Below are positions 54,468 through 58,086 of a DNA stretch of 64,000 nucleotides, one piece after another. Every line of letters starts with the position of its first letter. Position 1 is the stretch's first letter. The notes under the pieces were generated by a model. That model was given only the letters and a program-made list of their open reading frames with translations. It was not told the origin of the DNA and ran no database searches. Location: NCBI RefSeq assembly GCF_965641715.1, contig NZ_OZ282454.1; one strand, given 5' to 3'. This DNA comes from Escherichia coli (GTDB lineage Bacteria; Pseudomonadota; Gammaproteobacteria; Enterobacterales; Enterobacteriaceae). Both the position numbers and the translations under genes were made by a program.

Positions 54468-55039
54468 TGCATGAGCTGGAAGTCCTGCTGAGTCGCCTGA
54501 AAATGGAGCATCTGAGTTATCACGTTGAAAGCCTGCTGGAACAGGCAGCTAAAAAAGTGCTGAACTACCGGGAGTTCCTGTGCATGGCGCTACAGCAGGA
54601 ATGGAACGGCAGGCATCAGCGCGGTATGGAGTCCAGGCTGAAGCAGGCTCGTCTGCCGTGGGTCAAAACGCTGGAGCAGTTCGACTTTACCTTCCAGCCG
54701 GGCATCGACCGTAAGGTTGTTCGGGAACTGGCTGGTCTGGCGTTCGTGGAGCGCAGCGAAAACGTGATCCTGCTGGGACCTCCTGGTGTCGGAAAAACGC
54801 ATCTGGCCATAACTCTTGGCGTGAAAGCGGTGGATGCGGGACATCGGGTACTGTTTATGCCACTGGACAGACTGATCGCGACACTGATGAAAGCGAAACA
54901 GGAAAACCGGCTGGAGCGTCAGCTACAGCAACTGAGTTATGCCCGGGTGTTGATCCTGGATGAAATAGGCTATCTGCCGATGAACAGAGAGGAAGCCAGC
55001 CTGTTCTTCCGGCTACTGAACCGTCGATATGAAAAAGTG
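54464..55039 (+). pseudogene. IS21-family istB (AAA+ helper), 3'-truncated
   Basis: Walker A LLGPPGVGKTHLA, Walker B LILDEIGYLP; ORF tail is read-through into an IS3-family end fragment. Confidence 0.75.
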
Positions 55040-55113
55040 AAGTGGTCAACAAAAACTAGCCACCGAGTTAGAGTTTTTCCAGTATCGATTTTCCGATTCG
55101 TTTGGGGGTAACC
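55038..55113 (-). repeat. IS3-family terminal fragment (about 75 bp)
   Basis: near-identical to 42568-42650 end of the IS3-family remnant. Confidence 0.5.
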
Positions 55114-55614
55114 CACCGTTATATGTATTAGTCGCGACTTGATCTGACACATGGCCTTGAAAGGTTGAGAGTTACCGGTTTTGATATGGGTGTCGAATCC
55201 TTATACAAAACACGAGGTAACTCTCATGCTTCATACTACCAATCCCGTCATCAAACACAAAGCCGGTTTGCTCAATCTGGCTGAAGAACTCAGCAATGTA
55301 TCAAAAGCCTGTAAAATCATGGGCGTTTCGCGTGATACATTTTATCGCTATCGCGAACTGGCCGATGAAGGCGGTGTGGATGCGCTGGTTAATCGTAGTC
55401 GCCGCGCCCCTAACCTTAAGAACCGTACCGATGAGCTAACTGAGCAGGCCGTTGTCGATTATGCCGTCGCTTTCCCGGCGCACGGTCAGCACCGGACCAG
55501 CAACGAGCTGCGCAAACAGGGCGTTTTTATCTCAGGAAGTGGTGTCCGTTCTGTCTGGCTGCGCCACAATCTTGAAAACTTCAAAAAGCGTCTGAAAGCA
55601 CTGGAAGAAAAAGT
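55114..55614 (+). mobile_element. IS481-family element, copy 3, 3'-truncated by IS66
   Basis: identical to first 500 bp of copy 1; transposase ORF 55181-55618 cut after ...KALEEKV. Confidence 0.75.
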
Positions 55615-55651
55615 GTAAGCGTACAGCGAGGGCCGTATTGACGGGGATGTG

Positions 55652-57190
55652 TTATTCAGCTGGCAGTGCTATGCGCCACGGAAGCAGTTCGCTGACCCGG
55701 TTGACCGGCCAGTCTGCTATGACGCCAAGCACATGGCGAAGGTAGCTTTCTGGATCCACGTCATTCAGTTTGCACGTCCCGATCAGGCTGTACAGTAGCG
55801 CTCCCCGCTCACCACCATGGTCAGAGCCGAAGAACAGGAAGTTTTTACGACCCAGACTGACCGCCCGCAGGGCATTTTCAGCGATGTTGTTGTCGATTTC
55901 CACCCAGCCATCGTTCGCATAGTACGTCAGTGCCGGCCACTGGTTAAGTGCGTACGCGAACGCCTTCGCCAACTCTGAGTGTCGCGACAGGGTCTTCATC
56001 TTTTCACGCAACCAGCTTTCCAGGGATTTCAACAGCGGTTTCGTTTTTCGCTGACGTTCAGCAAGCCTCTGCTCTGCCGGCATTCCCCTTATATCCGCCT
56101 CTATGGCGTACAACTGACCGATCTGCTCCAGGGCTTCTTCCGTCAGTGCTGACGGGATGCGGACGTGCACATCGTGGATCTTTCGGCGGGCATGAGCCCA
56201 GCAGACAGCTTCCGTTATCCCACCATTGCGATACAGCTCGTTGAACCCGGCGTACGCATCCGCTTGCAGCACACCGCTGAAGCAAGCAAGATGAGTCTGC
56301 GGATGGATGCCTTTTCTGTCCGGGCTGTAAGCGAACCACACTGCAGGTGCCAACGCTGACCCAGCATTGCGGTCATCACGAACATACGCCCACAACCGCC
56401 CGGTCTTCGTCTTCTTATTACCCGGCAGCAGTACCTGGACCGGGGTATCATCGGCATGGAGTTTGCCGTCAGTCATGACATAGCCATGAAGCGCCTCTTC
56501 CAGCGGAGACAGCAGCCGGCAGCATGCATCCACCCAGCCCGACAGCAGTGAACGGCTCAGCTCCACACCTTGCCGGCCGTATATTTCTGACTGGCGATAC
56601 AGCGGGGTGTGCTCTGCATACTTCGAGGTCAGCACGCGGGCCAGCAGCCCCGGTCCGGCGATACCCCGCTCGATGGGCCGCGAAGGTGCAGGTGCCTGCA
56701 CGATGGCATCGCACTGAGTACAGGCATGTTTTTCCCGTACCGTCCGGATAACCCGAAAGGCGCTACGCATCAACTCCAGCTGTTCGGCGGTATCCTCGCC
56801 CAGATAGCTCAGTGAACCGCCGCAGTTCGGGCAGCACGGCGCCGCAGGCAACAGTCGCTTTTCGTCACGGGGTAGTGATTCAGGGAACGGCTTACGGGTG
56901 CGGGTCTGAGGCAACGGACGCTGTACAGCCGGGTCATACACCCTACCAGTCAGCGTATCGCTCTCTTTCTGAAGCCGGTTCAGATCGGCTTCCATTTGTG
57001 CGATACGGCGGGAGACTTTTTCGGAACGACTGCCGAAGTTCATCCGGCGGAGTTTATCCAGCTGCGCCTGCAGATGGTCTATTTCGCGCTCCCGGTTGCT
57101 CAGCTTTTCCTGCAGGGCGTGGATCAGCGCCTCCTGTTCGGCCAGGCGCTGTTTCAGCAGGAAGATGTCGTCAGAAGAGATGTCGTTCAT
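55652..57190 (-). CDS. IS66-family transposase TnpC
   Basis: 512 aa; leucine zipper, CPNCGG zinc-finger-like motif, DDE core. Confidence 0.9.
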
Positions 57191-57239
57191 AAGCCCGTAT
57201 TTTACCGGGCTTATTCTGTGACAACCAGGATAAAGAGAT

Positions 57240-57587
57240 TTACAGCATGGTCAGGGAGGTCAGCAGCCGCTTGGGCTGTCGCCAGTCGATACCTTCCAGC
57301 AGCATCGCCAGCTGCGCCTGCGTAAGGAACACTTTGCCATCACGGGCTGACGGCCAGGCGAAGCGCCCACGCTCCAGCCGTTTGGTCAGGAGGCACAGTC
57401 CGTCACCGGTGGACCACAGCAGTTTAACCTGACTGCCGCTGCGGCCCCGGAAAATGAAAACATGGCCGGACATGGGATCGTCTTTCAGCGCCGTTTGTAC
57501 TTTCGCAGCCAGGCCGTTGAAGCCATTTCTCATATCGGTGATACCGGCAACCAGCCAAATTTTGGTCCCGGAAGGTAACGGGATCAT
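57240..57587 (-). CDS. IS66-family TnpB (orf2)
   Basis: 115 aa ([31 protein letters not shown]...). Confidence 0.88.
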
Positions 57588-57985
57588 CGCTTCAGTTCCT
57601 GTATCAGCAGAGTCAGGAGCTTTTCGCTGACATTGCCATTGAAGCGGAGCGTCCCGTGCCGGAACGTTACCTCACAGCTGATACTGAGGGTTTCCGGGTC
57701 CTCTGCGAGCGATTCTGGCTGTTCGGCAGCTGCATCGAGAGTCACAGGAAGTAGCTGGGGGCTCTCTGAAGAAGGTAATAGCAGCTTTCCCTCGCGCCAT
57801 TGTTGTCGCCATTTGAACAACAGATTGGCGTTAATGCCATTTTCAAGAGCAAGTTTTGAGATGGATATCCCGGGTTCACAGGAGGCAGCAACGAGCAGCT
57901 GTTTAAATTCGGGAGGATAATTAGGGCAGCCTTTTCGCCTGCCGGGAGTCACATTTTTCTGCATATCTGACACTTTGGTTCCCAC
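57584..57985 (-). CDS. IS66-family TnpA (orf1, HTH)
   Basis: 133 aa, overlaps tnpB start. Confidence 0.85.
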   Translation of the reverse strand: MGTKVSDMQKNVTPGRRKGCPNYPPEFKQLLVAASCEPGISISKLALENGINANLLFKWRQQWREGKLLLPSSESPQLLPVTLDAAAEQPESLAEDPETLSISCEVTFRHGTLRFNGNVSEKLLTLLIQELKR

Positions 57986-58086
57986 TACTTATTTGGTGGA
58001 CACCACTTTGTCTAATTCGTCAGATTCTGACCAGACGGTTCAGGCTGTACGCTTACCTACAAAAATTACTCTCCGAATTACCTCCT

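Follow-up and report, generated by a model that had tools for sequence, protein, structure and literature searches.

How does a complete insertion sequence (IS) come to lie between two flanks that have nothing in common, and which DNA was lost on the way? This question is raised by a stretch of Escherichia coli DNA of 64,000 nucleotides (contig NZ_OZ282454.1 of assembly GCF_965641715.1; hereafter, the window), part of an IncF virulence plasmid of a pig E. coli in whose accessory part four ISs are piled up within ~3 kb. An initial annotation made from the sequence alone had taken the pile-up for a place of repeated, IS-mediated deletion and recombination. In the following, we argue that it is a graveyard of broken or whole ISs, which appears to mark a spot where recombination between repeat copies deleted adjacent genes.

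Plasmids of this family encode the AIDA-I adhesin, with STb and EAST1 in addition in sister plasmids. No plasmid in PLSDB is structurally identical to the window; it differs from pRHB38-C15_2 as an inversion isomer and by an extra 1338-bp IS. The RHB-named plasmids appear to derive from a hybrid long-read/short-read study, a link inferred from sample metadata.

Identity and exact ends of the nested elements

The pile-up has four junctions, which we number from left to right: istB to the IS911 end (junction 1), IS911 to IS481 (junction 2), IS481 to ISEc8 (junction 3), and ISEc8 to the remnant of a KAP-family NTPase gene (junction 4). All of them lie where the initial annotation had placed them and at canonical IS termini: istB is cut by an IS3-family end at 55037/55038, this end adjoins an IS481-family copy at 55124, and the latter is cut by an IS66-family element with breaks at 55615 and 58056. 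The features are listed in Table 1.

Table 1. Features of the IS pile-up and full IS481-family copies in the window
Feature	Position	Strand	Basis or remark
istA 3′ fragment (IS21-family transposase)	53875..54467	+	5′ part and left IS end absent
istB 5′ part, 574 of 798 nt (191 of 265 codons)	54464..55037	+	cut at 55037
IS911-group IS3-family element, terminal 86 bp (IRR end)	55038..55123	-	identity to IRR ends
IS481-family element, left 491 bp of 1201 bp	55124..55614	+	left inverted repeat TGTATTAG...
Complete ISEc8 (IS66 family), 2442 bp	55615..58056	-	terminal repeats, HMMs, pO157 identity
ISEc8 genes, all intact	tnpC 55652-57190, tnpB 57240-57587, tnpA 57584-57985	-	
KAP-family P-loop NTPase gene, 3′ remnant	58057..59132	+	first 389 of 747 codons gone
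Full IS481-family copy A	37569..38769	+	left flank of TGTTATA insertion, right flank of ATTTATC insertion
Full IS481-family copy B	48591..49791	-	left flank of ATTTATC insertion, right flank of TATCAGA insertion

The IS21 part is the relic of a family member, in which istA and istB are no longer bounded by terminal repeats because both IS ends are gone. Alignment of intact IS21-family copies to the window is confined to 53875-55037/40, the NCBIfam model transpos_IS21 matches the IstA fragment at profile positions 197-294 only (the C-terminal third), and PGAP annotates the equivalent gene of pPE041_2 as an istA pseudogene without an N-terminus. The IstB fragment is covered by IstB_IS21 (Pfam) and NF038214 at profile positions 1-183 of 232 and scores 208.4 bits (cut-off, 200). 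In a base-by-base comparison, istB tracks the intact reference istB of pRHB41-C11_3 up to 55037 (...TATGAAAAAG) and then continues as TGAAGTGGTCAAC...

The IS911 fragment, too, is a relic rather than an element. Positions 55038-55124 agree at 86 of 87 bases with the IRR end of an IS911-family copy that is complete (1249 bp) and has its transposase reading in the direction of this end. Across thousands of E. coli records, elements that PGAP annotates as IS911 or ISEc52 family have ends with 95-99% identity to the fragment. The IS911-type terminal inverted repeat (TGAAGTGG...) is present, and the 86 bp that are left contain nothing of the coding part with orfA, orfB, and the programmed frameshift. 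Neither the window nor any sister plasmid contains the remainder of this copy (nt 88-1249).

The adjoining sequence, from 55124 to 55614/5, corresponds to the first 491-492 bp of an IS481-family element, with 99.8% identity to both complete copies (1201 bp each) that the window contains. These full copies have the ends TGTATTAG...CTAATACA and code for a single DDE transposase (289 bits against NF033577; cut-off, 224); intact insertions of the element are accompanied by 7-bp duplications (TGTTATA, ATTTATC). The truncated copy retains a 130-codon open reading frame (55226-55618) whose stop codon is supplied by the ISEc8 terminus and whose product has the HTH_29 domain only, without the rve core (NF033577 positions 2-114; 93.7 bits). 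Having kept its own start, this HTH-only protein of 130 amino acids could conceivably inhibit full-length IS481-family copies in trans, a novel but weaker reading of the locus.

The ISEc8 copy is complete. As expected for ISEc8 of the IS66 family, it is ~2.4 kb long and bounded by terminal inverted repeats that start with GTAAGCG (both ends read GTAAGCGTACAGC), and identity to the copy on pO157, which PGAP assigns to the ISEc8 family, is 99.4%. The genes are organised as tnpA-tnpB-tnpC, with Pfam matches to DDE_Tnp_IS66, TnpB_IS66, and HTH_Tnp_1 and scores of 460.7 bits for NF033517 (cut-off, 180), 120 for NF033819 (50), and 94.4 for NF047595 (74).

Mismatched flanks of ISEc8 and a truncated KAP gene

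The 8-bp flanks of ISEc8, GAAAAAGT on the left and CTACAAAA on the right, form neither a direct nor an inverted repeat; the inverted duplication that would mark a replicative inversion is absent. In contrast, perfect 8-bp duplications (AAATCGGA, AATCAGTC, CATCCTGC) surround all three other copies that were examined, two in sister plasmids and the one on pO157. Hence, the missing duplication reflects the history of this copy and not its family membership. The absence of target duplications, claimed for the whole nest in the initial annotation, can be upheld for ISEc8; the IS911 and IS481 fragments keep a single end each and are thus unscorable in this respect.

What lies to the right of ISEc8 gives a direction to this history. 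In pRHB28-C15_2, the KAP gene is intact (2244 bp, 747 codons; KAP_NTPase domain at residues 29-280), and homology of the window to this plasmid begins exactly at 58057, i.e., at the ISEc8 end, with the octamer CTACAAAA inside the gene. The remnant carries an extra 1-bp deletion near 58600 that causes a frameshift. Upstream of the intact gene is a CBASS-like gene pair, and the 6 kb upstream of the breakpoint in pRHB28-C15_2 are found neither in the window nor anywhere in the sister plasmid pRHB38-C15_2. As the gene is intact in a relative and preceded there by the CBASS-like pair, DNA has been lost at this site. Reshaping of the accessory region by IS-mediated deletion and recombination with loss of cargo, as first suspected, is thus supported by the KAP truncation and by the related plasmids. 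The cargo comprises the KAP-NTPase gene and probably also the adjacent CBASS-like pair from the defence-gene cluster of the plasmid.

Shared junctions and flank hybrids in related plasmids

Junctions 1 and 2 are present in pGD17-2 from China, and junctions 1 to 3 in pRHB27-C21_3, pRHB38-C13_2, and pRHB38-C15_2 from the UK and in pPE041_2 from Korea; junction 4 is present in the window and two further assemblies. Given this spread, junctions 1 to 3 are old and inherited and not signs of recent activity at this site. The string istB-IS911-IS481-ISEc8 is a lineage marker of UK, Chinese, and Korean plasmids that can be used in plasmid typing and in epidemiology.

The distribution also bears on the possibility that collapsed or mis-joined repeats produced false junctions. 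The region does consist of multi-copy repeats (a sister plasmid has at least three ISEc8 and five IS481-family copies), but junctions 1 to 3 recur in independent assemblies from three countries and, therefore, do not result from mis-assembly; moreover, each of the breaks coincides exactly with an IS terminus. An assembly artefact, the objection foreseen at the outset, is thus effectively refuted, and we consider it hardly credible.

The comparison with related plasmids, proposed as a check in the initial annotation, uncovered not only shared junctions but also flank hybrids. pPE041_2 has the same ISEc8 copy, with the IS481 flank GAAAAAGT on the left and AAATCGGAaatcctc... on the right, and this right flank is that of ISEc8 copy 1 (AAATCGGA...) of the UK plasmids. 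Such a clean hybrid shows homologous recombination between ISEc8 copies, and it is the product expected from recombination of two direct copies 8.3 kb apart. In this relative, recombination has thus taken place at the very ISEc8 copy discussed here.

The IS481-family copies have been shuffled in a similar manner. In the window, each full copy combines halves of two different known 7-bp duplications (Table 1); the ATTTATC duplication is intact in pPE041_2, pRHB27-C21_3, and pRHB38-C13_2, and the flank combination of copy A (TGTTATA/ATTTATC) was found in no PLSDB record. Copy B and the truncated copy at 55124 have opposite orientations, and IS481-bounded inversions distinguish the sister plasmids. 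Hence, rearrangement was indeed repeated, as evident from the sister plasmids; the nest taken by itself does not require this, since three insertions and one deletion suffice to produce it.

A model for the origin of the pile-up

The events that would explain the locus are as follows. An IS911-like element would have entered istB of an already 5′-truncated IS21-family element, and the 1201-bp IS481-family element would then have entered this IS911 copy at a distance of 86 bp from the right end. Insertion of ISEc8 after nt 491 of the IS481-family element would have completed the nest. Finally, homologous recombination with a second, directly oriented ISEc8 in the KAP-NTPase gene, in the defence-gene neighbourhood of the plasmid, either within one molecule or via a two-plasmid cointegrate that later lost the reciprocal copy, would have produced a lone ISEc8 whose flanks do not match. 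This single step would have cost the plasmid the distal halves of IS481, IS911, and istB together with the 5′ half of the KAP gene and all intervening DNA. Both the order in which the elements inserted and the former presence of a second ISEc8 copy, now lost, are inferred.

We consider this sequence of three nested insertions, followed by recombination between two ISEc8 copies that removed all distal halves at once, the probable course of events. It is favoured because ISEc8 normally leaves 8-bp duplications, to which the window copy is an exception, because the right flank lies within a gene of which pRHB28-C15_2 has an intact version, because pPE041_2 contains a hybrid at the same ISEc8 copy, and because IS481-family copies of the plasmid family show a like flank shuffling and bound inversions.

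The model implies two ancestral junctions, ISEc8 in IS481 with its duplication (GTACGCTTAC next to GAAAAAGTGGCTCGTG) and ISEc8 in a KAP gene that still has the 5′ half (GTCAGAACTACAAAA next to GTAAGCGTACAGC). A PLSDB search with synthetic versions of them (KAP 5′ part joined to the ISEc8 left end; ISEc8 right end joined to GAAAAAGT and IS481 from nt 492 onward) returned bare ISEc8 ends only. Exact-pattern scans of metagenome and species-representative genomes gave no match to the ancestral junctions, and none to the real IS481-ISEc8 junction used as a control, which renders the metagenome scan powerless. An ISEc8 with the complementary, reciprocal flanks was found neither in the whole of pRHB38-C15_2 (140.5 kb) or pRHB27-C21_3 nor in the part of pPE041_2 that was searched, and a mosaic analysis of single-nucleotide polymorphisms in eight ISEc8 copies yielded two variable sites only, too few for a mosaic to be detectable.

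Two other ISEc8 copies were considered as recombination partners and ruled out by their intact duplications. Derivation of the IS481-ISEc8 pair by deletion from an IS481-tpx-ISEc8 block elsewhere on the plasmid was likewise rejected, because both outer flanks differ and the ISEc8 of the block has its own intact duplication.

The single ISEc8 step is challenged by pGD17-2, in which a complete IS481 is present at the 55124 junction; its other end adjoins aidA, with the TATCAGA flank, and not IS911 sequence. Judging from this arrangement, recombination between IS481 copies may have removed the distal IS911 and istB sequences before, and not in, the ISEc8 step. Taken further, each junction could be an event of its own, with the 3′ part of IS481 and the 5′ part of KAP lost separately at a later time, and the hybrid flanks of both full IS481 copies in the window would fit such a stepwise erosion. 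However, more events are needed than with a single deletion, and the pGD17-2 copy could as well stem from an already truncated ancestor through a crossover in the 491 bp common to both. We therefore regard the stepwise course as rather improbable.

Could the transposase itself have made the deletion? In that case, ISEc8 would have inserted into the KAP gene first, duplicating CTACAAAA, and its left end would then have attacked the nearby IS481 in cis, with deletion of the intervening DNA and without a new duplication. Consistent with this, the right flank starts with the octamer expected for insertion at that site of the intact KAP gene, and an insertion of ISEc8 into IS481 with both flanks was not found in PLSDB. 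Furthermore, the plasmid family does undergo deletions driven by a transposase, as shown by nested one-sided deletions from the fixed end of an IS91-family element in sister plasmids. To our knowledge, the mechanism of IS66-family transposition is still poorly defined, and replicative or one-ended transposition has never been demonstrated for these elements; we found no paper describing it. In addition, the other ISEc8 copies that were examined all represent simple insertions flanked by duplications, and the sole rearrangement of this copy with a known partner, that in pPE041_2, is homologous recombination. An adjacent deletion of this kind is, in our view, unlikely, and it is doubtful that ISEc8 itself made the duplication-free copy by a left-end attack in cis on its neighbour. 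If true, such a self-made deletion would be natural evidence of intramolecular (replicative or one-ended) transposition by an IS66-family element.

Comparison with known systems

With recombination between ISEc8 copies as the preferred explanation, the locus is a base-resolution record of how a few multi-copy ISs remodel the accessory region of an AIDA-I virulence plasmid of pig E. coli. Duplication-free IS copies and IS-bounded inversions and deletions are familiar from multi-IS resistance plasmids, for example in IS26 regions. The window shares with these regions the shuffling of flanks among identical copies, nested truncated ISs, and multi-replicon cointegrate backbones. IS26, however, has a conservative, targeted mechanism of its own; we know of no comparable mechanism for ISEc8 or the IS481-family element of the window, and for this reason, RecA-dependent recombination is our default assumption.

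In O157:H7 E. coli, homologous recombination between IS copies deleted island DNA in OI-43/48 (PMC3064760). There, a new IS629 copy inserts and recombines with a resident one, which leaves a single IS with mismatched flanks and removes the cargo between the two copies, as proposed here for ISEc8. The two cases differ in the IS and in the replicon (chromosome versus plasmid), and the IS629 deletions were observed experimentally, whereas ours is deduced from comparison.

The same IS is involved in the enterotoxigenic E. coli plasmid pEntH10407, where ISEc8 and ISEc8-like elements replace about half of the tra region (PMC2762410). Site and lost genes are different, and the passages considered here describe the tra replacement without a mechanism (PMC2762410); both cases combine ISEc8, an E. 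coli virulence plasmid, and the loss of adjacent backbone genes. In sum, recombination between IS copies with loss of genes is a known and ordinary route of plasmid change, and the pile-up represents no new element or mechanism.

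Results

The initial annotation described istB as cut by an IS3-family end fragment that abuts an IS481-family copy, itself cut by an IS66 element, and took the nest for a site of IS-mediated deletion and recombination; its observation was confirmed at every boundary. istB matches the intact reference up to 55037 (...TATGAAAAAG), after which the intact gene goes on as CGAGCATC and the window as TGAAGTGGTCAACAAAAAC, the right inverted-repeat (IRR) end of an IS911-group IS3-family element. These 87 bases are 95 to 99% identical to thousands of ends annotated by PGAP as IS911 or ISEc52 family and agree at 86 of 87 positions with the corresponding end of a complete copy (1249 bp), the terminus towards which the transposase of that copy reads. 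Because the IS21-family element is also truncated on its 5' side (alignment to intact copies begins only at 53875), the nest reaches further left than first described. In the relative pRHB41-C11_3, which has an intact istB, the remainder of the IS21-family element follows, and then, about 1.8 kb on, the F18 fimbrial operon. From 55124, TGTATTAG... is the left inverted repeat of a 1201-bp IS481-family element, flanked by CGTTATA, which is IS911 sequence; this truncated copy is 99.8% identical to both full copies in the window (A and B) exactly as far as the start of ISEc8.

Coordinates of features in the window
Feature	Position	Strand	Remarks
IS of 1338 bp, presumably IS186-like	30122-31458		In the leading/transfer region; ends CATAAGCGCTAACTTAAGGG, flanking repeat of GGGATTCTCCCC type; missing from sister pRHB38-C15_2
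IS481-family copy A	37569-38769	+	Flanks TGTTATA left, ATTTATC right
EAL-aah-aidA (AIDA-I) segment	38770-48590		Between copies A and B
IS911-related relic	42568-43198		Upstream of aah; IRR-proximal 635 bp, 92% identity; kept in all AIDA plasmids examined
IS481-family copy B	48591-49791	-	Flanks ATTTATC left, TATCAGA right
IS911-group end	55038-55124		IRR end
Truncated IS481-family copy	55124-55614	+	Identity to full copies ends at 55614/5
ORF of truncated copy	55226-55618		Native start and HTH_29 domain retained; TAA stop built by first ISEc8 bases (GTG/TAA); potential DNA-binding-only transposase derivative
ISEc8	55615-58056		Complete, 2442 bp; GTAAGCGTACAGC at both ends; three intact genes
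Plasmid-backbone defence-gene neighbourhood	58057-60435		Includes KAP NTPase remnant and TIR-domain protein
CAP12/Pycsar-type TIR-domain protein	59256-60188	-	

The IS66 element is an ISEc8 copy 99.4% identical to that of pO157, and all three of its genes pass NCBIfam and Pfam cut-offs. As the initial annotation had noted, its flanks, GAAAAAGT and CTACAAAA, are unrelated, in direct or reverse-complement reading. In the sister plasmids, the other two ISEc8 copies carry perfect 8-bp duplications, as does the copy on pO157; the missing duplication is therefore a real anomaly of this copy.

Mis-assembly, which would have undone the nest, is excluded by comparison with related plasmids, since the junctions recur in Chinese, UK, and Korean plasmids: istB/IS911/IS481 in pGD17-2 (China), and these together with IS481/ISEc8 in pRHB27-C21_3, pRHB38-C13_2, and pRHB38-C15_2 (UK farms) and pPE041_2 (Korean swine). 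Besides the window, the ISEc8/58057 junction was found only in the two RHB38 plasmids. Judging from sample descriptions, the RHB isolates appear to be part of a hybrid Illumina and PacBio/ONT study (PMC8034854).

Beyond the right end of ISEc8, starting precisely at 58057, the whole remainder of the window aligns collinearly with pRHB28-C15_2 (99.7%). In that plasmid, 58057 falls in the interior of a 2244-bp gene that is intact there (...gtcagaa/CTACAAAAattactc...). The product is a KAP-family P-loop NTPase of 747 aa, whose KAP domain (residues 29-280) lies wholly within the part that the window lacks; the remnant carries a later 1-bp deletion. Upstream of the break, pRHB28-C15_2 has a regulator-like gene and a CBASS-like SMODS nucleotidyltransferase/S_4TM effector pair, and together with the TIR-domain protein downstream this places the break within a defence-gene neighbourhood (in pRHB28-C15_2, 1516-7077 of the retrieved stretch). 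Neither the window nor any part of the 140-kb sister plasmid contains sequence from the 6 kb that precede the break; with the missing 5' half of the KAP gene, this bears out the suspected deletion of cargo.

The DNA of the window belongs to an IncFIA/FIB plasmid from porcine E. coli, of which it represents a large piece; over 37644-64000 it is 99.9% identical to pRHB38-C15_2 (CP057088.1; pooled pig faeces, UK). The left half of the window has its counterpart, in opposite orientation, in the F transfer region of pRHB38-C15_2, and the source is therefore a structural isomer distinct from the CP057088.1 record. The two are separated by a ~72-kb inversion (the 1-38769 side of the window) bounded by two inverted IS481-family copies. 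Two inverted 1201-bp copies also flank the AIDA-I adhesin genes, followed by two low-GC AraC-type regulator genes, a heptose phosphatase gene, and the nested-IS region; the AIDA-I segment is inverted relative to three relatives (pRHB38-C13_2, pRHB27-C21_3, and pPE041_2).

Discussion

In sum, our comparisons make it most likely that the nest arose by three insertions followed by a crossover between two ISEc8 copies. The nesting gives the order: IS911 would have inserted into istB, IS481 into IS911, and ISEc8 into IS481. We infer a second ISEc8, since lost, in the same orientation in the KAP gene; a single crossover with that copy would delete the 5' half of the KAP gene and the distal half of each of the three interrupted sequences (IS481, IS911, and istB), and would leave one ISEc8 with the mismatched flanks observed. 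Direct support for such an exchange at this very copy comes from pPE041_2, in which the same ISEc8 is bordered on one side by the IS481 flank and on the other by AAATCGGAaatcctctttg..., the latter being the flank, duplicated octamer included, of ISEc8 copy 1 in the UK plasmids, located 8.3 kb away in direct orientation. Neither of the two predicted ancestral junctions was found in PLSDB, scans of other collections were negative or powerless, and no mosaic is visible among ISEc8 copies, which are too uniform to reveal one.

An adjacent deletion made by the ISEc8 transposase would give the same final sequence. However, the other ISEc8 copies examined are all simple insertions, and we are aware of no IS66-family element for which an intramolecular pathway has been demonstrated (a literature search on this returned nothing relevant); we therefore consider it of low probability and rate it below the crossover. 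A putative trans-acting role of the HTH-only IS481 ORF is weaker still. pGD17-2, whose IS481 at the 55124 junction is complete and is flanked on the right by foreign sequence, leaves some room for stepwise erosion of the nest.

The 1201-bp IS481-family element, which generates 7-bp duplications, shows the same behaviour as ISEc8. An intact TGTTATA duplication is present in pRHB38-C15_2, while pPE041_2, pRHB27-C21_3, and pRHB38-C13_2 retain the ATTTATC duplication in full at the copy beside the AraC-type genes; copies A and B carry hybrid flanks (Table). Hybrid copy A, the product of the ~72-kb inversion, is in no PLSDB record. Taken together, the ISEc8 flank exchange in pPE041_2, the IS481 flank hybrids, the inversions, and the lost KAP 5' half support the view that IS-mediated deletion and recombination reshaped this accessory region.

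Several further observations concern the same elements. A 1020-bp ISEc18-like IS481-family element occurs in pRHB41-C11_3 (2122-3141 of the retrieved stretch) and six other PLSDB plasmids, flanked by AGGCATA (tpx side) and GATAAAT (IS630-fragment side; compare window 49792, flank of copy B). It also makes 7-bp duplications; its transposase is 25% identical to that of the window element, without DNA similarity, and its two flanks are exactly the 7-bp targets (TATGCCT and ATTTATC) of the 1201-bp element in the window lineage. Recombination within the IS does not account for two distantly related ISs having identical junctions on either side. Within ISEc8, nt 1296 and 1896 correspond to window 56910 and 57510; nt 1896 is T in all three pRHB38-C15_2 copies and C in the pRHB27-C21_3 copies at the same insertion sites, through either gene conversion or a repeat-polishing artefact. 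The ISEc8 copy of the nest is interrupted after nt 719 in pRHB27-C21_3 (27235-39566 of the retrieved stretch) by a Tn1721-like transposon (TnAs1 transposase, tet(A), and an MCP gene). An IS91-family end (GAGTAGGCAGCCTGG...) adjoins ISEc8 nt 1199 there, but the window-59901 equivalent in pRHB38-C13_2 (about 12200 of the retrieved stretch); the two breakpoints indicate that deletions have run, nested and one-sided, from an IS91 end that stayed fixed.

All pieces of the nest can be assigned to described IS families, as members or as relics of members; no new element or mechanism is required. The pattern, IS accumulation followed by IS-IS recombination, is familiar from virulence and resistance plasmids. 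A case involving ISEc8 itself and the tra region has been described in plasmid pEntH10407 (PMC2762410). For IS629 in O157 islands, accumulation and subsequent IS-IS recombination were shown experimentally (PMC3064760), whereas the nest described here is read from sequence comparison.
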